Below the pieces are notes generated by a model, which worked only from the letters and a program-made list of their open reading frames with translations, made no database searches and was not told the DNA's origin. This document shows, piece after piece, positions 9,797 to 56,405 of a stretch of 64,000 bases of DNA. Source of the DNA: Candidatus Omnitrophota bacterium. GTDB taxonomy: Bacteria > Omnitrophota > Gorgyraeia > Zapsychrales > Fredricksoniimonadaceae. The stretch is taken from contig JADFXX010000008.1 in the NCBI GenBank assembly GCA_015233335.1, forward strand, positions 11,798 to 75,797, written 5' to 3'. Numbering within the stretch: the first letter of the stretch is position 1; each line of letters opens with the position of its first letter. The translations under genes and the position numbers were made by a program.

Positions 9797-10437
9797 AGGA
9801 TATGGAACATCATTCCGATCAGCGTCATCATGGCCATGGCCAAGATTGCAGCCATAGACACCCCAGTTTCGCTACTCGATGGTTATTGAGCGTATTGATG
9901 GTGGGAGTGATCTTGATTTCTTTGCGGTCTTTTCTGATAGGGCAGATGTTTGTCAGGCTGACGTCTTATTCTGCGTATTCCTATTATAATGACGCCATTC
10001 GTATATGTAAGAAAATTATTGCGATCGACCCGGGTAATAAACAAGCTTGGACGGCTCTGGGGTTTTCCTATATGGACGAGGCTCATGTGGATGGGGCTAT
10101 CAGGGCATTTGGGAAGGTCCTCGAACTTAATCCCCATGATCAAGGAGCGGCCTCCTTCGAGTTGGGCCAAGCTTATTTTTTGAAAAAGGATTACGTCCGC
10201 GCCATTGATTATTTTAAACGTGTCAGAGGCCGGGGGCCTCGCGCCGGAGTTCTGTTAGATGCGGACATTCTTAGATACCGACATGGTGTATCGGGATTTC
10301 AAAGTGTGCACAGCATGCGAATTTTACTGGGCATGCTGATCAAGTGTTATCAACAGACAGGAGACACATTAAAGGCCGCTGAGGTCCAAAAGGAATATGA
10401 TTTTTATAAAAATGAGCATAAAAAAATATTATTTTAA
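9793..10437 (+). CDS. TPR-repeat protein with His-rich N-terminus and a TM anchor
   Basis: N-terminus MKDMEHHSDQRHHGHGQDCSHRHP, then a TM helix and TPR repeats (AWTALGFSYMDEAHVDGAIRAFGKVLELNP...). Confidence 0.6.
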   Translation: MKDMEHHSDQRHHGHGQDCSHRHPSFATRWLLSVLMVGVILISLRSFLIGQMFVRLTSYSAYSYYNDAIRICKKIIAIDPGNKQAWTALGFSYMDEAHVDGAIRAFGKVLELNPHDQGAASFELGQAYFLKKDYVRAIDYFKRVRGRGPRAGVLLDADILRYRHGVSGFQSVHSMRILLGMLIKCYQQTGDTLKAAEVQKEYDFYKNEHKKILF

Positions 10438-10445
10438 TCTAAAAA

Positions 10446-10546
10446 GTGTCATTGCGATCGTCATTTTCAGTGTCAAAATGTCTTATTGCTTCGCAATCAC
10501 AGGGTTGTGTCATTGCGAGCCCTTTTATTGGGCAAAGCAATCTTTT
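10446..10546. repeat. Palindromic repeat family A copy (GTCATTGCGA.. / ..AAGCAATC, two half-units)
   Basis: The sequence gtgtcattgcgatcg...attgcttcgcaatcac...gtgtcattgcgagccc...gcaaagcaatctttt lies directly upstream of the znuA-like signal peptide. Confidence 0.8.
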
Positions 10547-11428
10547 AGAAATATCGGACTATTAGGCTTGTTTTTTGTGTTTTTCACTGTAACGCCGGCA
10601 CATGCAGATAAGATCAAAGCTGTTGCAACCTTCAGTGTTATCGCTGATATGGTTCGCCATGTTGCCGGGGACTCTATTGATTTGCTCGTTCTGGTCGGCC
10701 CCAATGCCGATGCCCATGAATATGAGCCGGTTCCCGCGGACTCCGTTCACATTTCCAAAGCGGATATTATTTTTGAGAATGGCTTACACTTAGAGCATTG
10801 GCTTGACAAGCTTTATACGGCAAGCGGCACAAAAGCAAAACGCATTATTGTCTCCCGGGGAGTTTCTGTCCGGACCATGGGGGATAATCCTCAGGAATCC
10901 GATCCGCATGCTTGGCAGGATGTCACTAATGTTATCCTTTACGCCCAAAATATTTGTGATGCGCTTGTGGTTCTCGACCCTGTGAACAGGGTGAAATATG
11001 AGGCCCAAACTAAGGATTACGTCAAACAACTGCAAGCATTGGATGGCTGGGTTAAAGCTCAGGTTGCTCTTATCTCCGTAGAAAAGCGTAAATTAGTCAC
11101 TAATCATGATGCTCTAGGGTATTTTGCCCGACGTTATGGTTTTCAAATCATTGGGGCTGTTATACCCTCTGCAACAACTGAAGCGGCAGATCCCTCTGCC
11201 TTGCAAACCGCCCAATTATTAGATATTATTAAAAAGAACAACGTGCGTGCTATATTCTCGGAAAACATGGCTAATCTTAAATTAGCCCAGACCCTTTCAA
11301 AAGAAGCAGGTGTTGCCGTTGGCCCTGAATTATACACAGATGCTTTAGGGGTGATTGGTAGTGATGCCCAGACGTATATTCAAATGATCAAACATAATGT
11401 TAAGATTTTTGTTGAGTATTTAAAATGA
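10478..11428 (+). CDS. znuA: Metal (Zn/Mn) ABC transporter periplasmic substrate-binding protein, ZnuA/TroA family
   Basis: Signal peptide ending TPAHA, then IKAVATFSVIADMVRHVAGD. TroA-fold family protein followed by the ATPase and permease. The start is uncertain: the table ORF begins at 10397 and reads through repeat A; the in-frame ATG at 10478 is preferred here. Confidence 0.75.
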   Translation: MSYCFAITGLCHCEPFYWAKQSFRNIGLLGLFFVFFTVTPAHADKIKAVATFSVIADMVRHVAGDSIDLLVLVGPNADAHEYEPVPADSVHISKADIIFENGLHLEHWLDKLYTASGTKAKRIIVSRGVSVRTMGDNPQESDPHAWQDVTNVILYAQNICDALVVLDPVNRVKYEAQTKDYVKQLQALDGWVKAQVALISVEKRKLVTNHDALGYFARRYGFQIIGAVIPSATTEAADPSALQTAQLLDIIKKNNVRAIFSENMANLKLAQTLSKEAGVAVGPELYTDALGVIGSDAQTYIQMIKHNVKIFVEYLK

Positions 11429-20803: not shown

Positions 20804-20912
20804 AGGCCCTTTTAATTAAAACCCTCTTGCATTCCTTTTTCATTTTTTTATAATATATTTTACTTCGTTTTTCTCTATTCATTTGTTAACTAATTCTTAA
20901 AGGAGGTTCTTG

Positions 20913-21908
20913 ATGACAACCACCGGAGTCAGTGTCATTAATGATAAGGTTAAGAGGGAATCTGGTGTGATCGATGCGATCCGTTTTGAGACCTCTAAAG
21001 TTGTTGTTGGCCAGAACGTTTTGATCGACCGCCTGCTGATCGGCATATTGGCCAACGGTCATGTTTTGGTGGAGGGGGTTCCGGGGCTGGCCAAAACAAC
21101 CGCGGTCAAGACCTTGGCCCAGACGATACAGGCCAAGTTCCAGCGTCTGCAATTTACTCCTGATATGCTTCCGGCAGATCTTACCGGTACTCTCATTTAT
21201 GATCAGCGCACAGGAAGTTTTAATGTCAAAAAAGGTCCCTTATTCGCTAATATTATCCTGGCGGATGAGATCAACCGTGCGCCTGCCAAGGTGCAAAGCG
21301 CGCTTCTTGAGGCCATGCAGGAGCGGCAGGTGACGATCGGTGAAAATACTTTAAAATTGGATGATCCGTTTCTGGTACTGGCGACCCAAAACCCAATCGA
21401 GCAAGAGGGGACTTATCCTTTACCTGAAGCGCAGGTGGACCGTTTTATGCTTAAGGTCAAGATCACCTATCCTTCCAAAGACGAAGAGTTAAAGATCCTT
21501 AAGCGCATGGCCACGACGCGCCAGTCGATTCAGGTGCAGGCTGTCGCAACACCGGCGGATATTATCCGCCTGCGTTCGGTGGTAGATGAAATTTATATGG
21601 ATGAAAAGATCGAAGATTATATCGTTGGGATCGTTGAGGCGACGCGTGACCCCCATCGTTATAAACTAAGCGACCTTAAAGGATTAATTTTGTATGGGGC
21701 AAGTCCCCGGGCCACGATTAATCTGGCCTTGGCCGCCCGCGCGCATGCTTTTATTCAAGGCCGCGGATTCGTGACCCCGCAGGACGTCAAGAGTATCGGA
21801 ATGGATGTCCTGCGTCATCGCGTCATTCCAAGCTATGAAGCCGAGGCCGAAGGAAAAACCTCGGAAGACTTAGTTAAGCGTATTCTAGACGAAGTCGAAG
21901 TGCCGTAA
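20913..21908 (+). CDS. MoxR-family AAA+ ATPase
   Basis: Walker A GVPGLAKT, ADEINRAPAKVQSALLEAMQE. AAAGGAGG ribosome-binding site 7 nt upstream. The table ORF starts one TTG codon earlier. Confidence 0.92.
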   Translation: MTTTGVSVINDKVKRESGVIDAIRFETSKVVVGQNVLIDRLLIGILANGHVLVEGVPGLAKTTAVKTLAQTIQAKFQRLQFTPDMLPADLTGTLIYDQRTGSFNVKKGPLFANIILADEINRAPAKVQSALLEAMQERQVTIGENTLKLDDPFLVLATQNPIEQEGTYPLPEAQVDRFMLKVKITYPSKDEELKILKRMATTRQSIQVQAVATPADIIRLRSVVDEIYMDEKIEDYIVGIVEATRDPHRYKLSDLKGLILYGASPRATINLALAARAHAFIQGRGFVTPQDVKSIGMDVLRHRVIPSYEAEAEGKTSEDLVKRILDEVEVP

Positions 21909-21909
21909 A

Positions 21910-22806
21910 ATGATACCAAAAGACATTCTTGAAAAAATCCTTCGTATTGATATTACGACCAACCGTCTGGTGACGGATGTGTTTGCCGGGGCGTATCACA
22001 GTGTTTTTAAGGGGCGGGGGATGGAGTTTGATGAGGTGCGCGAGTACCAGCCCGGTGATGATATCCGCTCGATCGACTGGAATGTGACGGCCCGCACGGG
22101 TCAGGCCCATATCAAGAAATATGTGGAAGAGCGGGAATTGACCGTGATGATTTTGGTAGACGCATCGGCGTCGGTGCATTTTGCCTCAACCGGACAGATG
22201 AAGAATAAGCTGGCCGCAGAGATCGCCGCAGTGCTGGCTTTTGCCGCCATTCGCAATAATGATAAAGTCGGGCTTTTGATGTTCACGGATGGCCCGGAGC
22301 TTTTTATCCCCCCTAAAAAGGGAAAAAGTCATGTGCTTAGGGTCATTCGGGAGATTTTGTATTTTAAGCCAAAGGCCAAGGCCACCCATCTGCCCAAGGT
22401 GCTTGAATATCTCTTAAAAGTTCTTCGTCGAAGATCAACGGTTTTTGTCATTTCTGATTTTTTGGATCCCAATTCTGATTATTCAACAATGCGCAAAGCT
22501 TTGCGCATCGCCCATCAGCATCATGACCTGATCGCGGTGACCTTGACTGACCCCAGAGAAATGGACCTGCCGGATTGTTCATTAATAGAACTGACAGATG
22601 CGGAAACAGGCGCCAAAATGCTTGTCGATACGTCGTATGAACCGGTACGCCGCCAATATCATAACAAGGCCTTGGAGCAGATCAAGGCCCGCAGCCGTTT
22701 ATTTGATACGATCGGCATGGACCATATTGATATTTCAACCGATGTGCCTTATAAGAAAGCTTTAGTAAGTTTTTTTGCCCAAAGGCGACATCGCTTGGCA
22801 AGGTGA
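21910..22806 (+). CDS. DUF58 protein (MoxR-associated, vWA-like)
   Basis: EFDEVREYQPGDDIRSIDWNVTAR is the DUF58 signature. Confidence 0.88.
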   Translation: MIPKDILEKILRIDITTNRLVTDVFAGAYHSVFKGRGMEFDEVREYQPGDDIRSIDWNVTARTGQAHIKKYVEERELTVMILVDASASVHFASTGQMKNKLAAEIAAVLAFAAIRNNDKVGLLMFTDGPELFIPPKKGKSHVLRVIREILYFKPKAKATHLPKVLEYLLKVLRRRSTVFVISDFLDPNSDYSTMRKALRIAHQHHDLIAVTLTDPREMDLPDCSLIELTDAETGAKMLVDTSYEPVRRQYHNKALEQIKARSRLFDTIGMDHIDISTDVPYKKALVSFFAQRRHRLAR

Positions 22807-22815
22807 ATGTAAGGC

Positions 22816-22913
22816 ATCATTGCGAGACCTGTTGAATGTGTCATTGCGAGGAGCCGAAGGCGACGTGGCAATCTTTCTAAAAGATTGCTTCGCTTCGCTC
22901 GCAATGACACGAT
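22816..22913. repeat. Palindromic repeat family A copy (full hairpin)
   Basis: catcattgcgag..gtgtcattgcgaggagccgaaggcgacgtggcaatc...gattgcttcgcttcgctcgcaatgacacg is a long imperfect inverted repeat. Confidence 0.85.
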
Positions 22914-22942
22914 GATAAGTTTTGGATTAACATATAAAGTGG

Positions 22943-23482
22943 ATGAATATGAACGATATTAGAGATGTAAAACCTCCTCTTGACCTGCCTGACCTATGGT
23001 GGCTGTGGCTGTTGGCCTTGCTCATTGCGGCCGGAACCGGTATTTATTTCTTCCTTCGCCGTAAAAAATTGCCAAAGGCATCCCTCAAGCCGCAAGCTCC
23101 TGAATTATCAGCTTGGGAAAAAGCCTATAGTCAACTGGAAGCTTTGCGTCAAGACAACTTACTGGACCGCGGTCTTTTTAAAGAGTTTTTTACAAGGGTA
23201 GCGGATATTGCCCGTTATTATATGGAAAACCGGTTCAATATCCGTGCCCCGCATATGTCCAGCGAAGAGTTTTTGTTGTATCTGGGCAAGAGCGGCCATT
23301 TGAATGAAGATCAAAAGGCCTTATTGAAAGATTTTTTAAATTCCTGCGATATGGTTAAATTTGCCAAATACGCCCCGACCATTGCCGAGGCTTGGAAGAA
23401 TTTTGACTGCGCCCGGAAGCTAATCGACGAAACTAAACCTAACGCCGTCCAAGGAACAGAGAATGTTGATGCCCGAGTTTAA
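22943..23482 (+). CDS. DUF4381-like membrane protein (Bat operon)
   Basis: One TM helix (LWWLWLLALLIAAGTGIYFF) followed by a cytoplasmic domain, sitting before the vWA genes. Confidence 0.55.
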   Translation: MNMNDIRDVKPPLDLPDLWWLWLLALLIAAGTGIYFFLRRKKLPKASLKPQAPELSAWEKAYSQLEALRQDNLLDRGLFKEFFTRVADIARYYMENRFNIRAPHMSSEEFLLYLGKSGHLNEDQKALLKDFLNSCDMVKFAKYAPTIAEAWKNFDCARKLIDETKPNAVQGTENVDARV

Positions 23483-24467
23483 AACTCCGTTAGTTCTGCT
23501 GTTAATTCCTGTATTGCTGGCTATCGTGTATTTTGACCACAAACGAAGACAGAGCTCCTCGTTTCGATTTTCTTCGCTGTCTTTGATAGGCCAACTGGAA
23601 TCAACATGGCGCCTGCGTTGGAGCTTTGTACCGTTTCTCTTAAGGGTTTTGGTTTTAGTGTTATTATTAGTGGCATTAGCAGGCCCCCGAAAGCTTTTGG
23701 CAGTCTCTAAGTTAAATACCGAAGGCATTGATATAGTTCTCGCGCTGGATGTGTCCGGCAGCATGTCCGCTGAAGATTATGTGGTCAACGGACAGCGGAT
23801 CAGCCGGCTGGGTATTATTAAAAAAACAGTTGAGGATTTTATAGAGCAGCGCAAAACCGACCGTTTGGGATTGATCGTTTTTGGTTCACAGGCCTATACG
23901 GTGTGCCCTTTGACTCATGATCACGATTGGCTATTGGAAAATCTTCGTCAGGTGCGTTTGGGGGTCATTCAGGACAGTACCGCCATAGGCTCAGGGATCG
24001 CCACGTCATTGCTGCGATTGAAAAATAGCAAAGCTAAATCAAGGGTCATTGTTTTATTGACCGATGGGGTCAACAATTCCGGAAAGATCCTGCCGTTGGA
24101 TGCCGCTAAAATGGCCCAGGCTTTGGGGATCAAGATCTATACGATCGCTGCCGGCACCAAGGGCATCGTTCCGGTTCCGGTGACGGATGCTTTTGGCAAT
24201 CACTATTATGAGAACGCGCAGTTCGATCTGGATGAAGACAGCCTCAAGAAAATAGCGGATATGACCGGCGGTCAGTATTTTAGGGCGGCTGATACTGATT
24301 CGCTGCGTCAGATCTATCATCAGATCGATATGCTCGAAAAGACTAAGAGCGAGGAAAAAGGCTATAAGCTCTATGAGCCCACGTTCGGTTTTTTTGTGAT
24401 TGCGGCCCTGCTTTTATTGGCCTTGGAAATCATTTTAACCAATAGTTTGTTTTTGAAGATACCATGA
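23463..24467 (+). CDS. batA: vWA domain protein BatA-like
   Basis: N-terminal TM helices, then a vWA/MIDAS domain (DIVLALDVSGSM...LTDGVNN) and a C-terminal TM helix. Confidence 0.85.
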   Translation: MLMPEFKTPLVLLLIPVLLAIVYFDHKRRQSSSFRFSSLSLIGQLESTWRLRWSFVPFLLRVLVLVLLLVALAGPRKLLAVSKLNTEGIDIVLALDVSGSMSAEDYVVNGQRISRLGIIKKTVEDFIEQRKTDRLGLIVFGSQAYTVCPLTHDHDWLLENLRQVRLGVIQDSTAIGSGIATSLLRLKNSKAKSRVIVLLTDGVNNSGKILPLDAAKMAQALGIKIYTIAAGTKGIVPVPVTDAFGNHYYENAQFDLDEDSLKKIADMTGGQYFRAADTDSLRQIYHQIDMLEKTKSEEKGYKLYEPTFGFFVIAALLLLALEIILTNSLFLKIP

Positions 24468-25477
24468 ACTTTGCCAACCCCCAAGCTTGGGTATTATTGT
24501 GGCTATTGCCTTTGATCGCTCTAGCCCTGCATTTGTTTTATCAATACCGTCATCAGATGATGTCGCGTTTTATTCAAACTCATTTGCTTGATGAATTAGC
24601 TGAAGGTTTTAGTTTAAAGCGCTTACGACTCAAAGCCGTATTCCTGATGGCAGCTTTTGTATTGATGGTCGCGGCATTAAGCCGGCCCCAATGGGGATAT
24701 CATATGCGTGAAGTCAAACGTAATGGTTTAGATATTATGATAACGGTCGATGTGTCTAAAAGCATGCTGACACAGGATGTTAAGCCGTCCCGGCTTGAGA
24801 GAACCAAGCTTGCTGTCAAGGACTTGATCATGAAATTGGATGGTTCGGACCATATAGGTTTGATCGCTTTTGCGGGTGACGCGATGGTGATGTGTCCTTT
24901 AACGTATGATTATAACGGTTTTTTATTAAGCCTTGATGACCTAAGCGTTGATTCTATTCCCCGTGCCGGCACAAATCTTTCTGGGGCCATTGATGAAAGT
25001 GTTAAGGCGTATGAAGGAAGGGTTGATTCTGATAAGGCGGTGATTTTAGTGACAGATGGAGAAGAAGAAGAGGGCAATGCCTTGAATGCCGCCCGCAAGG
25101 CCCATGACAAGGGTGTGCGCATATATACAGTGGGGGTCGGCACGCAGGAAGGGGATTTGATCCAGGTGACCAATGCTGACGGACAGACAGAATTCCTCAA
25201 AGATTCTGACGGCAATGTGGTCAAGTCCCATTTAAATGAAAATTTATTACAGCAGATCGCCTATATCACAGGTGGTGCGTATGTCCGAAGTGCGGGGGCA
25301 GAATTTGGGCTGGATTATTTATATGAACGCCAATTATCAAAACTAAAGAAGCACGATATGCAGGAAAAAATGGCCAAGCTTTATGATGAGCGTTTTCAGT
25401 GGCCTTTAACTTTGGCATTTGTATTTTTATTAGCAGAAACTTTGATTTCAACTAGGAGAAGAAATGTCTTGCGGTAA
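24464..25477 (+). CDS. batB: vWA domain protein BatB-like
   Basis: TM helices, then a vWA domain (DIMITVDVSKSM...LVTDGEEEEG) and a C-terminal TM helix. Confidence 0.85.
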   Translation: MNFANPQAWVLLWLLPLIALALHLFYQYRHQMMSRFIQTHLLDELAEGFSLKRLRLKAVFLMAAFVLMVAALSRPQWGYHMREVKRNGLDIMITVDVSKSMLTQDVKPSRLERTKLAVKDLIMKLDGSDHIGLIAFAGDAMVMCPLTYDYNGFLLSLDDLSVDSIPRAGTNLSGAIDESVKAYEGRVDSDKAVILVTDGEEEEGNALNAARKAHDKGVRIYTVGVGTQEGDLIQVTNADGQTEFLKDSDGNVVKSHLNENLLQQIAYITGGAYVRSAGAEFGLDYLYERQLSKLKKHDMQEKMAKLYDERFQWPLTLAFVFLLAETLISTRRRNVLR

Positions 25478-25624
25478 AAGGGAATGGAAGAATATAGTTT
25501 TTCACGGCCGGCGCATGACCCCCATCCCCACAAGCTCGGCGCTTCGGGGGTATAGTTATAAGCACCCCCTGTGCGCCTGTGGGGTAGCTGGCCTTAGAAA
25601 AACTATATTCTTCCATTCCCTTTT
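25476..25624. repeat. 28-bp perfect inverted repeat (AAAAGGGAATGGAAGAATATAGTTTTTC) flanking a 93-bp GC-rich structured insert; candidate MITE or structured RNA
   Basis: Arms 25476-25503 and 25597-25624 are exact reverse complements. The insert has internal stems CCCCACA/TGTGGGG and GGGGG...CCCCC. Confidence 0.7.
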
Positions 25625-25634
25625 AGCTACATTC

Positions 25635-26567
25635 ATGATGCTTCCTTTTTTGGCTTGGGCTTCAGTTGAAGGTGATGTCAACAAAGCCAATGATCTTTAC
25701 AAGCAAGGCAAGTTTGATGACTCTTTAAAATTTTATCAAGAGGCCCTGGACCATGATGCAAAGTCGCCTGTTATTCCGTATGATTTGGGCACGGCCTTAT
25801 ACAAAAAAGGTGACTATGTGAAAGCCCGTGAATATTTACAAAAAGCCGCAGATGATAAAAGCTTGAAAGTGAAAACTCAAGCGGAATATAATTTAGGTAA
25901 TGTTCTTTACAAAACAGGAATACAAAAAGAGAATACTAATGTAGATGAAGCGATTTCGAATTTAGAGGACGCTTTGGGGCATTATGGACAGGCTTTAGCG
26001 CAAGAGCCTCAAGATCAGGACGCTAAATCTAATGAAGATTTCGTTAAAAAAGAGATCGAGCGTTTAAAGAAGAAAAAGCAAGAACAGCAGAAACAGAACC
26101 AACAACAGCAAAAACAGAACAAACAACAGCAACAAGATCAAAAACAGCAACAGCAAGATCAGCAGAAGCAGCCCCAGCAAAAGCAAGATCAAAAGAACCA
26201 AGAGAAGGACCAACAAAAGCAAGACCAGAAGCAACAAGAGAAGGACCAGCAAAAACAAAACGATCAGCAGAACCAACAAAGCCAACAAGATCAACAGAAA
26301 CAACAAGATCAACAGAAACAACAAGATCAACAGAAACAACAAGATCAACAAAACCAACAAGATCAGCAAAAACAACAAGATCAGCAGAAGCAACAGGACC
26401 AGCAAAAACAGCAGGACCAGCAGAATCAGCAGGAGAGTCAAAAAGACCTTGATCGTAAAGAAGCCCAAGATCTTTTAAAAGAATACCAGGACAATGAAGA
26501 GCCTAAAAAGCTTTTAAATTTTGCGCCAAAAAAAATAGACGACCGCCCTGTGCTTAAGGATTGGTAA
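25635..26567 (+). CDS. batC: TPR protein with long Gln/Lys-rich low-complexity region (BatC-like)
   Basis: Signal-like N-terminus MMLPFLAWASVEG, TPR repeats (LYKQGKFDDSLKFYQEALDHD...), then about 115 aa of QQKQ/DQQKQ repeats. The table ORF begins at 25464 and reads through the inverted-repeat element. Confidence 0.6.
   Translation: MMLPFLAWASVEGDVNKANDLYKQGKFDDSLKFYQEALDHDAKSPVIPYDLGTALYKKGDYVKAREYLQKAADDKSLKVKTQAEYNLGNVLYKTGIQKENTNVDEAISNLEDALGHYGQALAQEPQDQDAKSNEDFVKKEIERLKKKKQEQQKQNQQQQKQNKQQQQDQKQQQQDQQKQPQQKQDQKNQEKDQQKQDQKQQEKDQQKQNDQQNQQSQQDQQKQQDQQKQQDQQKQQDQQNQQDQQKQQDQQKQQDQQKQQDQQNQQESQKDLDRKEAQDLLKEYQDNEEPKKLLNFAPKKIDDRPVLKDW
26080..26440 (+). repeat. Coding tandem repeat (18-bp CAACAAGATCAACAGAAA-like units) encoding the poly-Q/K tract
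   Basis: Many near-identical units (caacaagatcaacagaaa x3, caagatcagcagaagcaacag...). The antisense reading gives a spurious poly-Leu ORF (26064-26468). Confidence 0.75.
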
Positions 26568-26568
26568 T

Positions 26569-29500
26569 ATGCAAGTGTCATTGCGAGCTCTCGTACCAGT
26601 GTCATTGCGAGCGAAGCGAAGCAATCTTTTCCTTTGTCTTTTGATGCTTCTGTCTTCAACCGGCACCTTAAAAGCTGACACTGTCAGCTTTGAGGCGAGT
26701 GTCAATTCTTCCAGAATTTCTTTAAGCGAAGTCCTGCAGTTGAACTTGACCGTGACCGGACTTAAGGACAATATTGACCCCATCAGCCTTCCTGTTCTTG
26801 ACGGTTTTTCAGCCAAATATCTTGGACCTTCGACCCGGGTGTCGATCGTGAATGGTGATTATCACAGCGAACGGTCTTTTGTTTATGACCTGTTTCCCAA
26901 CAAAGTAGGCCATTTCCAAATTCCGCCTATCAGCGCCACCATTGCAGGGCAGACCTATGTGACCAAACCTATTGATATTGAGGTCGTCGCGGACTCCGCT
27001 GGGGCTCAGGCACCTGCACCCCAACAAGCCCAAGATCAAGCCCCCAGCATCCAGAGCCTAAAAGACAAGATTTTGATCCTAGTTTCTTTAGAGAAAGAAG
27101 AAGTTTATTTGAATGAGCGTGTGCCGTTGAGCGTCAAACTTCTTGTTAACGATGTGCCCATACGGGACATTCAATTCCCTCAATTTGACAAGCAAGGCTT
27201 TGCGGTTGATGATTTTCAAAAGCCTCAGCAATATTCGCAGGTGCTCAACGGGGTCAAATATGATGCAGTGGAATTTAAGTCATATATTTATCCTACCCAT
27301 TTAGGGGATGTTCCCATCGGGCCTTTTCAAATTGCCGGTAATGTTGTTTATAAAAACGGCAATAACAATCCTTTTAATCAGGACATGAATCCTTTCGGAG
27401 GCGGTCTTTTTAAAGATTTTTTTGATTCCTATGCCACCCGTCCTGTGACCGTGACTTCCCGGCCGTTACCTATGCATGTTAGGGCCTTGCCGCAGGAAGG
27501 CCGTCCGCGGGATTTTTCCGGGGCTGTCGGCCAGTTTGATTTTCAGGCGAGTGTTTCTCCGTTACAGGTCAAGGCCGGAGATCCGATAACCTTAAAGATG
27601 TCTCTCAAAGGCAACGGCAATTTTAAGAGTGTGACAATGCCTGTCTTTCAAGGCGCTGGCTTTAAAACGTATGAGCCTAAGATAAAGGACCAAGCAGATG
27701 AAAAAACAGCAGAGGAAGTGATCATTCCCACCTCAGCCCAAGTCACCCAAGTGCCTGCCTTGCATTTTTCTTATTTTGATACATCCCTTAAAGATTACAA
27801 AACGATCACTCAGGGTCCTTTTGCCATTCAAGTCATGCCTAACGCTCCTGATGAAGGGTTTAAAGCAGTTGGTTTTTCTGATGTCAGCCGGGAGCCGGCA
27901 ACCTTGCATATAGACCAGTTTTCTTTTGGGAAAATGTTCCATACGATCCGCAAGGGTTTAAGCAAGCTATGCAAATCAATAGGTTTTTGGCTGACACTAG
28001 GATTGATTATTGTAGGAGGAGGGTCTTATTTTTTGTGGCGGCGTTTTCAGGAACGCCTTGAAAATGATCCCGCGTTTGCCCGCAGGCTTAAGGCCTATAC
28101 GGAAGCTAAACAAACCTTACGTATGGCGCAGGGTTATATTTCGACCGGTAAGTCTAAGGATTTCTACACGCTTTTATCAAGGGCCATCCGCGAATATCTG
28201 GCCAATAAATGGCATCAATCGCCGGCAAGTTTAAGTATTGAGGAAATACTAAAACAGCTTAAATCCGCAGGGATTGATGAAACTCACATCGAAGGGGCAA
28301 AAAATATCCTAACCACAAGTGATCTGGTCTGTTTTGCGGGCGCAAACCGCGATGCCAGCCAGATGCAATCCGACCTTTCTTTGACCCAAAACCTGATCAA
28401 TCATTTGCATATCTCATTGCGAGCCCCGAAGGGGCGAAGCAATCTTTTATCTCTATTTTTCTCCATCAGTCTTCTTTTAACTGCCACCGCTTGGGCAGAT
28501 CTGCCTTGGGTCAAACAGCAGAGTTCAGCGTTTTCCGGTGAGGGGGTCTGGTTCGGTGCCGCGATGTCCGCTGACGGGAGTCGTTTGATACTGTTGGATG
28601 TGTATAATGGTTTGTATATCTCAACTAATGGAGGAGCCAGTTGGAGTCAGTATAATCCCAGTACATATCATTATACATATTGGCGTGCTGTTCCTGCTAT
28701 GTCTAGCGACGGTAGTCATGTGATGGCGGGGAGTTATCAATATCATGGAAGATTATATCTTTCGGTCAATGGTGGTGTGATTTGGAGTGAAACCCGGCCA
28801 GCAGGTGATAATGATCTAAATTGGAGTGTGACTGCCATGTCGGGTGACGCAAGTCATTTGCTGGCTGGAGTAGGTAGTTTGTCAGGACGTTTATATCTAT
28901 CGAGCGATGGGGGAGCTCACTGGGTTGAGATCCAGCCTGATGGGAATAACGATGAAAATTGGAATACGGCCGCCATCTCCAGTGATGGAAGTCATTTGAT
29001 CGTAGGTGAATATAACAATGGCACGACTAATCGGGGACGTTTGTTTTTTTCGAAAGATGGAGGTGCTACTTGGTCTGAAACTCAGCCGGCAGGTGCTACG
29101 GAACAATATTGGAAGTTTGTAACCACTTCCAGTGATGGCAGTCATTTTATGGCTGGAATTAATGGTGGGCAAATATATACCGGTGTTTTGTCCGGTGGGA
29201 TCATCTCATGGACCGGAGGTGTCAGTAGGGGTTGGTATGTTGGCGCCAGTTCCAGTGACGAGAGTTATTTGCTGGCGGGAGTATATGTTGGACGTCTGTA
29301 TTATTCAACCAATGGGACTGCCGGGACTCCGACTTGGACTGAAACTCGACCCGCAGGGGCTAATAATTATGTATGGAATGCAGGATCTATAAGTAGTGAC
29401 GGGACTCATATGATGGCAGGGATTCAGGGGGGCGAGGTGTTTATTTCGACAAATGGGGCAACGAGTTGGAGTGAAACTAAGCCTCAAATAGATCAAAATT

Positions 29501-30510
29501 GGGATACTGTTGCCAGCTCTCGTGACGGAAAATATTTGATGGCCGGGCATGACAGGCATTTGTATCATTCAGTCGACGGAGGATCAACTTGGAGCGAAAA
29601 TCAGCCAGCGGGAAATTTGAATAGATATTGGTATTTGACCGCCAGTTCCGGGGATGGGACAATTTTGTTAGCAGGAGTGGCAGGGGCACGATTATATCTT
29701 TCGACCAATGGCACTGTTTCAACTCCCACTTGGGCGACAACTAATCCCGTCACTTCAGGGGGTGTGAATAGATCTTGGTATACAGGCGCTATATCCCGCG
29801 ATGGCAGTCATGTGATTGTGGGAAGCTATAGCAACACCGGACGTTTATGGGTTGGGGTTGTAAACGCAGGGACGATCACATGGTCTGAGGCTGGTACAGC
29901 GGCAATTGGTCTTCACAGAGACTGGCAGACAACTGCCATTTCCAGTGACGGAACCTATGTGATGGCAGGGAATTATCTTGATAGTAACTATTACGCAGGA
30001 CGGCTATATGTTGGCGTTTTAAGCGGCGGGGTTTATAGTTGGAACGAGAAACAACCGGCAGGAAATTTGGATGTGGACTGGGTTGTGACAGCCATGTCCG
30101 CTGACGGGAGTCATATGATGGCCGCAACAATACCCGACAGTAATGGTGATCCGGGGGGCTTATATCTCTCGTATGATGGGGGCACGACTTGGTCAAGCCC
30201 CACTGATCTGTGGATAGTAAATAGTGATCAATATTGGCAGATAGGTTTTATGTCCAGTGACGGAAATTATATTGTTGTAGGAGATGATTCAAGTTTGTAT
30301 GAGTCGACAGACGCAGGTATCACATGGAGACCCCTCAATTTCCCGGCAGATGTTAGCTATAATGGTTATTCTCTTAATGCTGTTGCCGGTTCCAGCGACG
30401 CTAGCCATTTGATAGCGGCATCAAATGGTATTGGTTTATATGTCTCCGCCGTCGGCGGAAAAGCCTCCAATCTAACTCAAGTCCAAAATCTAACACAGGT
30501 GACGTTTTAG
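26569..30510 (+). CDS. batD: BatD-like aerotolerance protein (N-terminal ~610 aa) continuous with a BNR/Asp-box beta-propeller domain (C-terminal ~690 aa); possibly two genes
   Basis: BatD-like N-domain and TM helix (FWLTLGLIIVGGGSYFLWRRF). After the in-frame repeat at 28414 comes a second hydrophobic segment (LLSLFFSISLLLTATAWA), then more than 15 copies of S-x-D/N-G-G-x-x-W (STNGGASWSQ, SVDGGSTWSE, SYDGGTTWSS...) alternating with SSDGSHL/MAG. Confidence 0.7.
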   Translation: MQVSLRALVPVSLRAKRSNLFLCLLMLLSSTGTLKADTVSFEASVNSSRISLSEVLQLNLTVTGLKDNIDPISLPVLDGFSAKYLGPSTRVSIVNGDYHSERSFVYDLFPNKVGHFQIPPISATIAGQTYVTKPIDIEVVADSAGAQAPAPQQAQDQAPSIQSLKDKILILVSLEKEEVYLNERVPLSVKLLVNDVPIRDIQFPQFDKQGFAVDDFQKPQQYSQVLNGVKYDAVEFKSYIYPTHLGDVPIGPFQIAGNVVYKNGNNNPFNQDMNPFGGGLFKDFFDSYATRPVTVTSRPLPMHVRALPQEGRPRDFSGAVGQFDFQASVSPLQVKAGDPITLKMSLKGNGNFKSVTMPVFQGAGFKTYEPKIKDQADEKTAEEVIIPTSAQVTQVPALHFSYFDTSLKDYKTITQGPFAIQVMPNAPDEGFKAVGFSDVSREPATLHIDQFSFGKMFHTIRKGLSKLCKSIGFWLTLGLIIVGGGSYFLWRRFQERLENDPAFARRLKAYTEAKQTLRMAQGYISTGKSKDFYTLLSRAIREYLANKWHQSPASLSIEEILKQLKSAGIDETHIEGAKNILTTSDLVCFAGANRDASQMQSDLSLTQNLINHLHISLRAPKGRSNLLSLFFSISLLLTATAWADLPWVKQQSSAFSGEGVWFGAAMSADGSRLILLDVYNGLYISTNGGASWSQYNPSTYHYTYWRAVPAMSSDGSHVMAGSYQYHGRLYLSVNGGVIWSETRPAGDNDLNWSVTAMSGDASHLLAGVGSLSGRLYLSSDGGAHWVEIQPDGNNDENWNTAAISSDGSHLIVGEYNNGTTNRGRLFFSKDGGATWSETQPAGATEQYWKFVTTSSDGSHFMAGINGGQIYTGVLSGGIISWTGGVSRGWYVGASSSDESYLLAGVYVGRLYYSTNGTAGTPTWTETRPAGANNYVWNAGSISSDGTHMMAGIQGGEVFISTNGATSWSETKPQIDQNWDTVASSRDGKYLMAGHDRHLYHSVDGGSTWSENQPAGNLNRYWYLTASSGDGTILLAGVAGARLYLSTNGTVSTPTWATTNPVTSGGVNRSWYTGAISRDGSHVIVGSYSNTGRLWVGVVNAGTITWSEAGTAAIGLHRDWQTTAISSDGTYVMAGNYLDSNYYAGRLYVGVLSGGVYSWNEKQPAGNLDVDWVVTAMSADGSHMMAATIPDSNGDPGGLYLSYDGGTTWSSPTDLWIVNSDQYWQIGFMSSDGNYIVVGDDSSLYESTDAGITWRPLNFPADVSYNGYSLNAVAGSSDASHLIAASNGIGLYVSAVGGKASNLTQVQNLTQVTF
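26574..26630. repeat. Palindromic repeat family A copy (double unit) at the 5' end of the batD-like gene
   Basis: gtgtcattgcgagctctcgtaccagtgtcattgcgagcgaagcgaagcaatctttt. It encodes the N-terminal VSLRALVPVSLRAKRSNLF of the ORF. Confidence 0.85.
28414..28448 (+). repeat. Palindromic repeat family A copy inserted in-frame inside the batD/BNR ORF
   Basis: ctcattgcgagccccgaaggggcgaagcaatctttta differs by two substitutions (C/G at the first base, C/T at base 12) from the copy inside lpxB. It encodes SLRAPKGRSNLLS. Confidence 0.8.
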
Positions 30511-30655
30511 GTTGTCATATCGTCATTCGCGATGAATTTTAAGATGTCTTAAGGTCCTTCGCTTTGCTCAGGACGACGAAAATAAAGGTGACGGGCGTAT
30601 TTATTATTAAGACGTCTTAAGGTCCTTCGCTTTGCTCAGGACGACGGGTACAGGA
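30511..30655. repeat. Repeat family B: two tandem copies of AAGA(T/C)GTCTTAAGGTCCTTCGCTTTGCTCAGGACGAC plus a CGTCATTCGCGATGA half-site
   Basis: Direct repeat at about 30541-30587 and 30609-30655, in the convergent intergenic region between the batD/BNR ORF and lpxB. Confidence 0.8.
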
Positions 30656-30662
30656 TTACGGA

Positions 30663-31844
30663 TTAATATGCCAATTCGTTGAGGACTATATGTGCCGCGC
30701 GTAGGCTGGCTCCGGGCTCGCCTAAGGATGTTTTAACTGCGGCTAATTCATTAACGATTTGTTTATTATTTAAAGCATTTTCTACAGCACGGGCGATTGT
30801 CTCGGGCTTGGCATCATTTTGGATCAGTTCTTCCGCCACTTTTTTTCCGGCTACAATATTGACCAAACCAATATAAGGAATTTTGATCACAGCTTTTGCT
30901 ATTGCATAGGTCAGCCAAGAGGTCTTATAAATGATGACCATGGGTTTAAGGAGCAATGCGGTTTCTAAAGTGGCGGTGCCTGAGGCCACCATGGCGGCAT
31001 CCATGGCATTGATACCGTCATAAGTTGTTCCGTCGTAGATTTTTATAGGAAGGTCTTTTAATGCAGTGTCATTGCGAGTCCCGAAGGGGCGAAGCAATCT
31101 TTTAAGTGACCGTCCCATTAGCACAGATTCAATAAATTTTAACGGGATGGTCGATGCTTTAAGCAAAACGAACTGGCGGTCATGGTCTTGTTCGAAAAGC
31201 TTTTGGGCCGCTTCCAGCATACAGGGCAGATGGCGTTCGACTTCTTTAGCGCGCGAACCGGGCATAAGTCCTATGGTCGTTTTACCCTCGGATAAGCCAA
31301 TGTTTCTTAAAACCTCTGACGGTGTTTTGCTGACTACGATTTCATCAACTAATGGATGTCCGACATAATCGACCTTCATGCCGTATTTGGTGTAAGTTTC
31401 CTGTTCAAAAGGGAATAACACGATCATGCGGTTAACCAATTCTTTGATCTTTTTGACCCGTGCCTCTTTCCAAGCCCATACCTGCGGGGATATATAGTAG
31501 ATGATCTTGATGCCGCGTTTTTTTATTTCACGGGCCAAGCGCAAATTAAAACCCGGATAATCGACGAGGATGACGGCGTCAGGGTGGGTGGTATCGATTT
31601 GGACTAACGCCTGATCAAAAACTTTTTTGATGCGGCCTAAATTTTTAAGCACTTCGACAAAGCCGATAACTGCAAGTTCGGTGATATCCGTAAAACATTC
31701 AACTCCGGCTTGGCGCATATGCGCACCGCCGATCCCGCTTAAACGCAGGGATGGCTGAAGCTGTTTTAAAGCGCGAGCCAGACCGGCCGCGCGCATATCA
31801 CCGGACGCTTCACCAGCTATGACCATTAAATGATAATTTTTCAT
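30663..31844 (-). CDS. lpxB: Lipid-A-disaccharide synthase
   Basis: N-terminus MKNYHLMVIAGEASGD, YYISPQVWAW, and conserved VASGTATLE. AAGGGTG ribosome-binding site upstream of the ATG at 31844. The table ORF extends to 31874. Confidence 0.92.
   Translation of the reverse strand: MKNYHLMVIAGEASGDMRAAGLARALKQLQPSLRLSGIGGAHMRQAGVECFTDITELAVIGFVEVLKNLGRIKKVFDQALVQIDTTHPDAVILVDYPGFNLRLAREIKKRGIKIIYYISPQVWAWKEARVKKIKELVNRMIVLFPFEQETYTKYGMKVDYVGHPLVDEIVVSKTPSEVLRNIGLSEGKTTIGLMPGSRAKEVERHLPCMLEAAQKLFEQDHDRQFVLLKASTIPLKFIESVLMGRSLKRLLRPFGTRNDTALKDLPIKIYDGTTYDGINAMDAAMVASGTATLETALLLKPMVIIYKTSWLTYAIAKAVIKIPYIGLVNIVAGKKVAEELIQNDAKPETIARAVENALNNKQIVNELAAVKTSLGEPGASLRAAHIVLNELAY
31066..31103 (-). repeat. 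Palindromic repeat family A copy inserted in-frame within lpxB coding sequence
   Basis: gtcattgcgagtcccgaaggggcgaagcaatctttta. On the lpxB strand it encodes KRLLRPFGTRNDT immediately N-terminal to the conserved KIYDGTTYD...VASGTATLE block. Confidence 0.8.
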
Positions 31845-31887
31845 AAATGAGACACCCTTACGGATTCGAAGCAATAGGGGATATCAA

Positions 31888-47257: not shown

Positions 47258-47360
47258 TCGTCATTCTGAGGCGAAGGTCCTCAAACCGGACACTCACAGT
47301 TGTTCGCCGAAGAATCTTAATGAGCATTAAGCTTCGTTGCTCTGCTCAGGACGACAAATA
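47258..47360. repeat. Repeat family B copy (CGTCATTCTGAGGCGAAGGTCCTC...GCTTCGTTGCTCTGCTCAGGACGAC)
   Basis: Imperfect inverted repeat in the fba-ilvC intergenic region. It shares GTCGTCCTGAGCA.AGC.AAG with the 30511-30655 copies. Confidence 0.8.
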
Positions 47361-47371
47361 TAAAGGGACAT

Positions 47372-48484: not shown

Positions 48485-48702
48485 GAAGGGATAGGGTTGT
48501 TGTTTTCAACTCACGGTCATTTTCTTAACGTCAAAAATTGCCTATTTTTTAGGTGTCTGAACAACTCGCCTTCAGCTTCTCTGGAAGCTTCAGGCTCGAA
48601 CAAGTTCAGACATCCCTCGCCCTTCGGCTCGGGATTCCCTAAAAAACAGTCAATTTTTAACTAAAAATGACAGTGAGTTGAAAACAACAACCCTATCCCT
48701 TC
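48485..48702 (+). repeat. Structured intergenic element copy 1, bracketed by a 39-bp inverted repeat (1 mismatch); candidate ncRNA or MITE
   Basis: Arm 48485-48523 (gaagggatagggttgttgttttcaactcacggtcatttt) pairs with the reverse-complementary arm 48664-48702. The ~140-nt core contains the hairpin AGCTTC-tctg-GAAGCT and the conserved block GTTCAGACATCCCTCGCCCTTCGGCTCGGGATTCCCT. Confidence 0.6.
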
Positions 48703-48744
48703 TCCGATTACTATTGCAACATTTGTACGCGTCTATTTGGGTTT

Positions 48745-48895
48745 AAGTTGTAAGGGAATCCCGAGCCGAGGGGCGAGGGATGGCTGAACTTGTCTGAGCT
48801 CTTTATTTCCAGAGAAATAAAGAGCGAGTTGTTCAGCCACCGCGACAACATAAGATTTTTGCCGTGAATAAAATGACCGTGATCTTTAAAAAACA
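48745..48895 (-). repeat. Structured intergenic element copy 2 (~80% identical to the copy 1 core), opposite orientation
   Basis: On the minus strand: TCACGGTCATTTT...CTGAACAACTCGC...GCTCTTTATTT-ctctgg-AAATAAAGAGC...GTTCAGCCATCCCTCGCCCCTCGGCTCGGGATTCCCT. The hairpin position is the same as in copy 1 and the stems are compensatory. Confidence 0.6.
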
Positions 48896-48948
48896 AATTA
48901 AACCCAAATAGCTGCTACTAAAGGGACAATTTTATAAAGGATAATTAT

Positions 48949-54451: not shown

Positions 54452-56405
54452 GATTTTAGTCATTGTTGAGTCGCCGGCCAAGGTAAAAACTATTAATAAG
54501 ATTTTAGGGCCAAAATATAAAGTCACGGCTTCTATGGGGCATTTGATCGATCTGCCTAAATCGACCATAGGGGTCGATGTGGACCATGGCTTCGCCGCTA
54601 AATTTATTGTGGTGCGTGATAAACAGAAGACCCTTATCAAATTAAAAAAAGAAGCCAAGGGGGTGGACGAAATTTTTATAGCGACCGACCCTGACCGCGA
54701 AGGAGAGGCTATCGGCTGGAATTTAATACAGCATATTGGTCAGGGTAAAAAGGTGTGCCGGGTTGTATTCCATGAAATTACCAAGGATGCGGTCAAGAAG
54801 GCTTTTGCGCATCCTCGGGAATTTAACCGCAAACTGGTAGATGCCCAGAATGCCCGGCGGGTATTGGACCGTATTGTGGGTTATCAGATTAGCCCTTTAC
54901 TGTGGAAAAAAGTCGGTTCACGTTTGAGTGCCGGCCGTGTACAGTCTGTTGCCCTGCGCTTGGTTGTTGAACGAGAGGAGGCGATCAGAAGTTTTGTTCC
55001 TCAGGAATATTGGCAAATTTCGGTTGATTTGCAAAAAAAGGGACTTCAGGAAATTTTGAATGCCAATCTGGAGCGTATTGACGGTGAAAAAATAGAACTT
55101 AAAAATGAGATATTGACCAATGATATCGTTCATGAAATTAAAAAAGAATCTTTTAAAATCAATGCCATTACCACCAAACAAGTCAAACGAAACGCTCCGC
55201 CGCCATTTATCACAAGTACCTTGCAGCAAGAGGCGTTCAGTAAGTTAGGGTTTAACACATCTAAAACTATGATGATTGCCCAACAGCTTTATGAAGGCGT
55301 TGAAATCGGTGATGAGGAGCCTGAAGGTTTGATCACGTATATGCGTACGGATTCCGTTAACATTGCCTTGGAGGCTATAGAAAAAGTTCGGGGATTGATC
55401 AAAAAAGAGTACGGCGCTGATTATTTACCCGCGGAGCCTAATCGTTTTAAATCTAAGAAAAGCGCTCAAGAAGCGCATGAGGCCATACGGCCCAGTGATG
55501 TTCATCGCAAACCTGCCGACGTCAAAAGATACTTAAGTGATGATCAATTTCAATTGTATGACCTTATTTGGAAGAGATTTATCAGCTGTCAGATGATGAA
55601 TGCTGTTTTTGAGCAGACTAAGATCGAAATTCTAAGCGGGCGTTTTCAATGGGGTGTTTCAGGTTCTATTTTGGCTTTTCCCGGATATTTGGCGATTTAT
55701 AAGGATCAGGAAGATCAGGACATTAAGCTTGATCCTTCTTTATATGCGCAGGGGGATAGCCTTCATTTAATTGCAATCAACCCCAGTCAGCATTTTACTA
55801 AACCTCCGGCAAGATACTCGGAAGCCAGTTTAGTCAAGGCCTTAGAAGAGCAAGGTATAGGACGGCCATCGACTTATGCCTCGATCATTCACACATTAGT
55901 CTACCGAAATTATGTGATGCGTGACCGTGGTTATTTTACAGCCACAGATTTGGGGATCAAGATTTGCCATTTGCTGGTAGAATATTTTAAGAAGATCATG
56001 GATATAGGTTTTACGGCAACCATGGAAGAGGAGTTAGACTCGATCGAAGACGGCACGAATGATTACGCCAAGGTGCTGGGTGATTTTTGGGGCCCTTTCA
56101 AGGAAGAATTAGATTTTGCTTCGGCCAATATTCAAAAGACCGAGGTGACTATAGAAAAACCGTGCCCCGAATGTGCCAGGCCCATGACGGTTAAATGGGG
56201 ACGCCGGGGACGTTTTATCAGCTGTACGGGTTTCCCTGAATGTAAGCATGCCGAACCATTTACGACTGGTATCAAATGTCCTCAGGAAAACTGCACCGGA
56301 GAGCTTGTTGAGCGCCGTTCCCATCGTTCCGCTGTTTTTTACGGTTGCAGCCGTTATCCGGATTGCAAGTTTATAGCTAATAAACTGCCGTCTGTCAGCC
56401 AATGA
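54438..56405 (+). CDS. topA: DNA topoisomerase I
   Basis: TOPRIM N-terminus (KILVIVESPAKVKTINKILG), catalytic Tyr region, and C-terminal zinc ribbons (CPECARPM..., CPQENCTGEL...). Confidence 0.95.
   Translation: MSMPKILVIVESPAKVKTINKILGPKYKVTASMGHLIDLPKSTIGVDVDHGFAAKFIVVRDKQKTLIKLKKEAKGVDEIFIATDPDREGEAIGWNLIQHIGQGKKVCRVVFHEITKDAVKKAFAHPREFNRKLVDAQNARRVLDRIVGYQISPLLWKKVGSRLSAGRVQSVALRLVVEREEAIRSFVPQEYWQISVDLQKKGLQEILNANLERIDGEKIELKNEILTNDIVHEIKKESFKINAITTKQVKRNAPPPFITSTLQQEAFSKLGFNTSKTMMIAQQLYEGVEIGDEEPEGLITYMRTDSVNIALEAIEKVRGLIKKEYGADYLPAEPNRFKSKKSAQEAHEAIRPSDVHRKPADVKRYLSDDQFQLYDLIWKRFISCQMMNAVFEQTKIEILSGRFQWGVSGSILAFPGYLAIYKDQEDQDIKLDPSLYAQGDSLHLIAINPSQHFTKPPARYSEASLVKALEEQGIGRPSTYASIIHTLVYRNYVMRDRGYFTATDLGIKICHLLVEYFKKIMDIGFTATMEEELDSIEDGTNDYAKVLGDFWGPFKEELDFASANIQKTEVTIEKPCPECARPMTVKWGRRGRFISCTGFPECKHAEPFTTGIKCPQENCTGELVERRSHRSAVFYGCSRYPDCKFIANKLPSVSQ

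Follow-up and report, generated by a model that had tools for sequence, protein, structure and literature searches.

A short interspersed repeat in frame within a loop of lpxB from a Candidatus Omnitrophota bacterium, a probable passenger insert

A 64,000-nucleotide stretch of a Candidatus Omnitrophota genome (GenBank contig JADFXX010000008.1, positions 11,798 to 75,797; the whole stretch is referred to here as the window) carries lpxB, which codes for lipid-A-disaccharide synthase, and within the unbroken reading frame of this gene lies a copy of a short repeat that is also found elsewhere in the window. We call this repeat family A. With a probability of about 0.88, we propose that the lpxB insert stems from a short interspersed repeat, imperfectly palindromic and non-autonomous, one copy of which resides as an in-frame translated passenger in a loop that tolerates it. 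The features on which this proposal is based are:

30663-31874, minus strand: lpxB, intact open reading frame (ORF) of 403 amino acids from a TTG codon; the likely start is the ATG at 31844, giving 393 amino acids
31066-31104, plus strand: family A unit GTGTCATTGCGAG-TCCCGAAGGGGC-GAAGCAATCTTTTA, inside lpxB and antisense to the gene, encoding (S)LKRLLRPFGTRNDT
31065-31118, minus strand: whole extra LpxB segment relative to insert-free orthologues, residues M253-T270 of the 403-amino-acid ORF (MGRSLKRLLRPFGTRNDT), 18 codons, boundaries approximate

The repeat copy inside lpxB

The family A unit in lpxB is 39 nt long and reads GTGTCATTGCGAGTCCCGAAGGGGCGAAGCAATCTTTTA on the plus strand. A 37-nt string of the repeat is found exactly at 31068-31104 and the full unit with its leading GT spans 31066-31104, which moves the coordinates given in the initial annotation by 1-2 nt. 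As that annotation had claimed, the element lies in the minus-strand lpxB frame without breaking it: the ORF stays open through ...SLKRLLRPFGTRNDT..., with ALKDLPIKIYDGTTYDGINAMDAAMVASGTA coming next, and the repeat, read antisense as (S)LKRLLRPFGTRNDT, is followed by ALKDLPIKIYDGTTYDG... Its described length of 13 codons is true for the 39-nt core, but LpxB is 17-18 residues longer at this loop than insert-free orthologues, which corresponds to 51-54 nt of extra DNA. The limits of this extra segment were taken from protein and codon alignments, which place the insert after query residue 252.

The similarity to other repeat copies is not expected by chance. None of 100 dinucleotide shuffles contained a match to the 37-nt string, whereas the window has two at three or fewer mismatches. 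A looser pattern, CATTGCGAG-N6-30-GAAGCAATC, matched five times in the window against an expectation of 0.

Host gene and constraint

The host gene is a full-length lpxB. Its 393-amino-acid product is 100% identical to a protein (P0001) of an NCBI 'Candidatus Omnitrophica' metagenome-assembled genome (MAG), encoded on an 81.7-kb contig. The Pfam profile LpxB (PF02684, E=4e-99) aligns residues 17-373 with profile positions 2-344 of 374, the solved Escherichia coli enzyme 5W8S is matched at E=2.5e-56, and 5W8S is also the best Foldseek match of the AlphaFold2 model described below. The window contains further genes for lipid A and lipopolysaccharide synthesis, namely two lipid A acyltransferase homologues, a 3-deoxy-D-manno-oct-2-ulosonic acid (Kdo) transferase, a heptosyltransferase fusion and an MsbA-like ABC exporter, and the pathway is therefore present in this organism. 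In E. coli lpxB is essential, and the same is assumed for the Omnitrophota host.

At every invariant column of a 74-sequence alignment, the query retains the common residue. The ratio of non-synonymous to synonymous substitution rates (dN/dS) is 0.08-0.10 in comparison with seven orthologues, with dS near saturation, and lpxB is therefore under purifying selection. From the open frame and this selection, we infer that the repeat is translated as part of LpxB.

Orthologues at the insertion loop

The query was compared with the 120 best database LpxB orthologues. A short connector of 18-20 residues between conserved anchors, typically ...IPLKLIEDQLFSYKHLPLKIYDG and in one example ...LIEDQLFSYKHLPLKIYDG, is present in 74 of the 120, and these lack the repeat motif. 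Translations of palindromic repeats were found at the loop in 38 (P0001, the query itself, is included in this number), five carry other unclassified inserts and three could not be parsed. The segment is thus not ancestral LpxB sequence, in agreement with the proposal that it had been inserted. Among the 38 repeat-bearing proteins, family A is found in 23 and a second repeat, family B, in 16, with one protein containing both. Family B gives the peptides CHSRESGNP or SFPRKRESI and is encoded by GTCATTCCCGC-GAAA-GCGGGAATCC.

For seven orthologous loci the DNA was fetched and set out codon by codon. Five are filled, four with family A (GTCATTGCGAG...GAAGCAATC in differing frames and orientations) and one with family B, and two are empty:

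P0034: family A forward, frame 1, GTG TCA TTG CGA GCG AAG CGA AGC AAT CTC
P0022: family A forward, frame 2, five tandem 39-nt units
P0009: family A forward, frame 3
P0024: family A forward and reverse pair, head-to-head as in the intergenic cluster at 22838-22910
P0003: family B
P0013 and P0037: empty

Family A is stop-free in five of its six frames, only the reverse frame TCG CAA TGA being closed. Each of the five open frames (three forward, two reverse) occurs at the loop, and the frame containing TGA is never used. In a neighbour-joining tree of LpxB made without the variable segment, filled alleles of differing types and empty alleles are intermixed within a close clade (at least 68% identity), and the more distant Omnitrophota LpxB proteins are almost all empty at the loop. 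The tree is poorly resolved and was therefore not used to count events. As judged from the sequences, the differing frames, orientations and families cannot stem from one insertion without further events.

Within the loop, the number of units also varies. P0017, P0042, P0043 and P0022, whose flanking protein sequences are identical (362-368 matching residues), differ only in the number of tandem 13-codon units, with 2, 3, 4 and 5, respectively. This series points to an expansion in place, through slippage or unequal exchange.

The loop is not the only site in LpxB to have received repeats. A second hot spot is located after query residues 119-122, where about 20 orthologues carry inserts, mostly CHSRESGNPL of family B; it corresponds to a helix-to-strand connector of the N-terminal domain (helix 97-108, strand 113-118). 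A minor third site after residues 286-288 is occupied in three orthologues (KRPNCFD...). The query LpxB is empty at both. At the seven orthologous loci, no genuine copy was found in the gene bodies of the neighbouring ABC, GFO/IDH/MocA or BatD genes, and the copies lie in lpxB or between genes. The hot spots could be caused by the survival of tolerated insertions, by a DNA target preference or by turnover at an old seed insertion.

Predicted position of the insert in the fold

An AlphaFold2 model of LpxB was made with 73 orthologues (mean predicted local distance difference test score, pLDDT, 90.1; predicted template modelling score, pTM, 0.87; model numbering is that of the 403-amino-acid ORF minus 10). 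The insert comprises model residues 243-260, of which 254-259 (FGTRND) form the sole stretch with a pLDDT below 50. The model extends the helix 235-251 into the first half of the insert and places the strand 267-270 (IKIY) after the insert loop. A surface loop had been anticipated for this segment; in the model, the insert forms a low-confidence excursion that separates a helix from the strand after it. In Rossmann-like domains, ligands are bound at the C-terminal ends of the strands, and helix-to-strand connectors lie on the opposite edge. The predicted helix-to-strand position would thus fit a tolerance of LpxB for inserts.

Family A copies elsewhere in the window

With one mismatch permitted in either half-site, family A occupies five loci in the window (10446-10548, 22816-22910, 26575-26630, 28413-28449 and 31066-31104). 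Only the lpxB copy is internal to a conserved gene; one locus is cleanly intergenic and three are at gene ends, two at the 5' ends of ORFs and one over the batD stop. The four loci outside lpxB, together with the ORF that two of them touch, are:

10446-10548, plus strand: family A units, degenerate and intact, flanked by a TPR gene and znuA
22816-22910, strand not assigned: intergenic cluster made up of one half, one forward and one inverted unit, with the inverted pair at 22838-22910
26575-26630, plus strand: 1.5 family A units, which open the batD ORF and provide its ATG-proximal residues MQVSLRALVPVSLRAKRSNL, as opposed to MKKF... in orthologues
28413-28449, plus strand: closest sister copy, 35/37 identical to the lpxB copy and 2.6 kb away from it, at the BatD end position
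26569-30510: batD-BNR ORF, 1313 amino acids; BatD has 575-606 amino acids at five orthologous loci

The copies that had been reported near 10446, 22816 and 26574 are real and belong to the same family as the lpxB element, but the closest copy, at 28413-28449, had been overlooked. The centre CCCGAAGGGGC is common to the lpxB and 28413 copies and absent from the other three loci, which makes these two copies, on the same strand and separated by 2.6 kb, the closest relatives of each other.

The position of the 28413 copy coincides exactly with the end of orthologous BatD proteins (...HLEKSLK*). As a stop codon is missing here, the batD ORF runs on across the repeat (HISLRAPKGRSNLLS) and takes in a signal-peptide-like stretch as well as a BNR/sortilin-like repeat protein. 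The 1313-amino-acid ORF is either a real fusion or stop loss, or the downstream gene has its own start, masked by the mechanical ORF call. At the other end of batD, the repeat region provides the sole upstream ATG and the basic residues ahead of the hydrophobic core. The 10446 cluster is likewise in frame with a mechanical ORF for ZnuA (10397-11428) and lies upstream of the signal peptide, with the ZnuA domain beginning at residue 76. The N-termini predicted for the batD and znuA ORFs are probably too long, as in-frame repeat units lie at these 5' ends, upstream of the signal peptides.

Of the seven fetched loci, five keep the Bat operon (MoxR, DUF58, BatA/B VWA, TPR and BatD; window 20910-30510) and the GFO-lpxB-batD synteny, with batD immediately next to lpxB, and a BNR-repeat gene between batD and lpxB was seen at none of the seven.

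Element architecture, sister families and spread

Family A has the layout GTCATTGCGAG / variable centre / GAAGCAATCT, or in short form GTGTCATTGCGAG-[variable centre]-GAAGCAATCTTTT, with a centre that in most cases is self-complementary and a unit size of 27-40 bp (39 bp in lpxB). Each unit has a 5-bp outer stem (ATTGC/GCAAT) with adjoining conserved GAG and GAA and a centre that varies. The inner stem of the lpxB copy is predicted to be 5 bp on the plus strand and 3 bp on the mRNA strand. The description of the element as palindromic holds for this copy in a weak sense only, for an outer stem of 5 bp and an inner stem of 3-5 bp, but the lpxB copy folds no better than shuffled sequences. Other copies do: the copy at the batD end folds somewhat better than shuffles (z about -2), and the inverted pair at 22838-22910 forms a strong hairpin (-29 kcal/mol, z -8.7). 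A reading of the lpxB copy as a regulatory hairpin was considered and dropped as the leading explanation, as its hairpin stability is not significant.

A third repeat, family C, with the layout GTCGTCCT-GAG-CAAAGC-GAA-GGACCT, is present in the window at three positions:

30530-30588: family C
30598-30656: family C
47308-47366: family C

Family C (GTCGTCCTGAGCAAAGCGAAGGACCTTAAG...) shares with family A the arrangement GTC-stem-GAG-CNAAGC-GAA-stem, and its two tandem copies at 30530-30588 and 30598-30656 take up the spacer directly downstream of the stop codon of lpxB. An Rfam scan of the whole window at gathering thresholds detected three tRNAs only and no family for the repeat. A full-text search of the accessible literature library with the repeat sequence, its sub-strings and its six-frame peptides returned only unrelated primer matches, and nothing specific to this repeat was found in literature on Omnitrophota or Patescibacteria with repeats.

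A genome scan with GTCATTGCGAG-N4-30-GAAGCAATCT, using one genome per species, gave at least 120 loci; what follows on other genomes refers to the matches listed by this and the related searches. Among these, family A is found in more than 15 bacterial phyla, cultured isolates included. The listed hosts include Chloroflexota, Patescibacteria, Planctomycetota, Desulfobacterota, Omnitrophota, Atribacterota, Sporomusa and others, and the Bacteroidota isolates Pedobacter, Mucilaginibacter, Flavobacterium, Chryseobacterium and Hymenobacter. One copy is located in a genome of Candidatus Tisiphia, a member of the Rickettsiaceae (L084). Family A is also frequent among the listed matches in IMG/VR viral contigs. 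Several of the listed contigs have arrays of 4-5 family A copies.

The commonest centres among the listed matches are CGAAGC, CGCAGC, CGTAGC and CAAAGC, which with the flanking G give GCGNAGC. We take this to be the GNA-triloop DNA mini-hairpin motif and offer it as a lead only. Longer centres show self-complementarity, and their folding is better than that of shuffles (mean -3.5 compared with -1.5 kcal/mol, listed matches).

Residence within genes is not confined to lpxB. Twelve of 154 listed copies from other genomes are flanked, in some frame, by 80 or more open codons on either side, and according to Pfam three of these twelve are inside a single conserved domain:

L043: family A copy in the GATase domain of GuaA
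L067 (Curtissbacteria): family A copy in the adenylation domain of an ATP-dependent DNA ligase
L077 (Omnitrophica): family A copy in a PfkB kinase

Taken with the 38 orthologues that have repeat peptides at the LpxB loop, these copies inside Pfam domains of other phyla argue that the similarity noticed in lpxB is not an isolated coincidence. We speculate, as a bolder proposal that we consider rather less probable than its opposite, that families A, B and C might form a previously undescribed superfamily of mini-hairpins, pan-bacterial and in addition phage-borne, whose ends are conserved over more than 15 phyla and whose centres vary yet remain self-complementary, and which would routinely colonise coding regions (LpxB, GuaA, DNA ligase, PfkB kinase) as a general counterpart of the behaviour known from Rickettsia. 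If this were true, it would follow from the cross-phylum conservation of the sequence that a conserved enzyme acts in trans or that a vector moves horizontally, and the LpxB loop would be a natural and massively replicated experiment in insertion tolerance.

Comparison with known repeat systems

The initial annotation had compared the lpxB insert with Rickettsia palindromic elements (RPEs). In the summary that PMC10969869 gives of Ogata et al. 2000 and 2002, RPEs are hairpin-forming, non-coding sequences of about 100-150 bp in several families, which are found between genes and in frame in unrelated housekeeping genes. Family A resembles them in being interspersed between genes and in frame in conserved genes, in adding a peptide at a fold-compatible position and in the coexistence of several families; in lpxB, the insertion is in frame in a conserved protein gene, at a site that is predicted to be structurally tolerated, and is inferred to be translated. 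In contrast to RPEs, the 39-nt core (extra segment 51-54 nt) is far below a length of about 100-150 bp, and RPEs have been described in Rickettsia, whereas family A is found in Omnitrophota, many other phyla and viral contigs. This separation is made on length and host, as published for RPEs. The likeness to RPEs is one of behaviour (in frame, tolerated, several families), and membership is not supported.

Family A also shares properties with repetitive extragenic palindromes (REPs) and with their composite forms, REP doublets forming hairpins (REPINs) and bacterial interspersed mosaic elements (BIMEs). It is a short, imperfect palindrome of the 20-40 bp class, which is repeated, mostly extragenic and found in inverted pairs (22838-22910 and the lpxB of P0024), with varying stems and conserved ends. 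REPs inside genes have been reported, and in two Xanthomonas species recB carries differing REPs at about the same site (Di Nocera et al., 2013, PMC3733652). Unlike REPs, which have an unpaired GTAG or CGTC tag at one end, family A ends in GTCATT... and ...AATCT: no such tag was present in any copy of the window or in the 154 listed copies from other genomes, the ends being GTCATTGCGAG and GAAGCAATCT. Moreover, classical REP families are species-specific, whereas the family A sequence is conserved across phyla.

[quoted passage not shown] QMITE1 and QMITE2 of Coxiella are MITEs that form in-frame fusions, and QMITE2 provides a C-terminal extension of enhC (PMC5896051). Intragenic copies of the enterobacterial repetitive intergenic consensus (ERIC) are cited in PMC10969869. 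Similar to MITEs, family A is non-autonomous, overlaps ORFs and adds residues or lengthens gene ends, and the copy at the batD end resembles the QMITE2 extension of enhC. However, MITEs have 100-400 bp with terminal inverted repeats and target-site duplications, and family A is far shorter, below their usual size also when this is taken as 50-500 bp. We file family A as a further case of a known kind, the superfamily of families A to C being the more novel option.

Proposed origin of the insert and alternative explanations

We propose that a family A copy, which most recently would have shared ancestry with the copy at the batD end 2.6 kb away, became lodged in lpxB within the C-terminal Rossmann-like domain, where a connector leads from a helix to the following beta-strand. 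As five of six frames are stop-free and the added DNA is a multiple of three, lpxB stays open and the repeat would be read as a passenger peptide. According to the model, the first half of this peptide may prolong the preceding helix, with the rest forming a disordered loop. The connector edge is opposite to the substrate-binding strand-to-helix loops, and an insert at this edge is likely to be tolerated, which would explain why the lpxB loop and the equivalent N-terminal loop gather inserts across the clade. The insert itself would be neutral, and the hot spot would reflect survival of tolerated inserts rather than targeting. By analogy with REPs and their REP-associated tyrosine transposases (RAYTs), the repeat might move as single-stranded hairpin DNA with an enzyme acting in trans, complemented by local slippage (PMC3733652).

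Several observations weigh against this proposal or parts of it. The lpxB copy is a poor hairpin in comparison with shuffles (z -0.45 as DNA, +0.24 on the mRNA strand). Mobility is argued from analogy with REPs, and a Pfam scan of 56 non-overlapping ORFs of at least 90 amino acids in the window detected no RAYT, HUH/Y1 or other transposase. As lpxB has two hot spots and the neighbouring gene bodies have none, tolerance may not be a sufficient explanation. Given the poorly resolved tree, an ancestral seed insertion followed by turnover and loss may also account for the pattern at the loop. The tandem series could partly reflect short-read assembly ambiguity, with units miscounted. Finally, 12-15 nt outside the 39-nt core are unaccounted for, and the exact insertion boundaries and any target-site duplication are unreadable because the closest non-identical LpxB orthologue in a collection of 5.8 billion proteins is just 79% identical. 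The sequence TCTTTTAA is present at the 3' end of the lpxB repeat (31098-31105) and again just beyond its 5' end (31055-31062), but its first part belongs to the repeat consensus and there is no close empty allele to fix the boundaries.

A different view would be that the insert is kept for a function, either as a basic amphipathic extension (SLKRLLRPF) for membrane binding of LpxB or as a DNA or mRNA hairpin that tunes expression or the pace of translation, with its recurrence reflecting positive selection. Of 120 orthologues, 38 have been struck at the loop and about 20 at a second loop, neighbouring genes were spared, the model continues the preceding helix into the insert, and the sister copy at the batD end retains a better hairpin (z about -2), all of which would suit such a function. 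Yet the peptides differ radically between frames and families, from the acidic CHCEEQRDEAI to the basic SLRAKRSNL and further to VIASEAKQS and CHSRESGNP, which leaves no plausible common function at the protein level. Both orientations are found, 74 of 120 orthologues lack the insert, and the inner stem of the lpxB copy is weakened, with folding no better than that of shuffles. We therefore regard a retained function as unlikely.

Less probable still is that the insertion has disabled lpxB, or that the join is an artefact of metagenome assembly across a repeat. The source is a MAG and short repeats can give chimeric joins, but both flanks carry on the same LpxB frame and alignment, and retained invariant residues, the low dN/dS of 0.08-0.10 and a confidently predicted fold do not fit a pseudogene. 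In addition, comparable inserts are present in dozens of independent assemblies from JGI, ENA and NCBI with conserved GFO-lpxB-batD synteny. That the segment is ancestral LpxB sequence with a coincidental likeness to the repeat, or that the intergenic copies are derived from the gene, would be suggested by nothing but its in-frame position. Its absence from 74 of 120 orthologues, all more distant ones included, the 35/37 DNA identity to a copy outside the gene with no match in 100 shuffles, and the presence of the family in many phyla make this the least credible of the explanations, and we consider it refuted. An in-frame, translated family A passenger in a tolerated loop thus remains our preferred explanation.

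Implications

The colonisation of housekeeping enzymes in frame by selfish palindromic repeats, which is classically associated with Rickettsia, would with these results reach a candidate phylum of free-living bacteria and an element that is REP-like and much shorter. The comparative record is unusually rich, as it appears to comprise dozens of independent insertions in one loop and in every usable frame. The insertion hot spots flag permissive loops of LpxB, which could be useful in protein engineering. For the annotation of MAGs, such repeats can swell and fuse gene calls, as seen for the lengthened batD and znuA ORFs and the 1313-amino-acid batD-BNR ORF, and they yield spurious peptide motifs such as VIASEAKQS, CHCEERSDEAIS, SLRAKRSNL and RLLRRFAPRND. 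The wide phylogenetic spread of one conserved repeat also poses the question of what moves family A.

Other features of the window

A XerC/D-like recombinase gene at 56402-57271, beside topA and dprA, is the only recombinase-type match among the 56 scanned ORFs of the window. Within the Bat operon, a 151-bp MITE-like element, GC-rich inside and bounded by perfect 29-bp terminal inverted repeats, is located at 25475-25625, at the batB stop and the start of a BatC-like TPR ORF (25464-26567), whose frame stays open across it. The same TPR ORF contains a long, Q/K/D-rich low-complexity tandem region with 9-nt periodicities at 26067-26449. The spacer between ilvC and leuA, which has no Rfam match at the gathering threshold, is filled at 48485-48896 by nested long inverted repeats of 39 nt (97% complementarity), 52 nt (88%) and 90 nt (73%).

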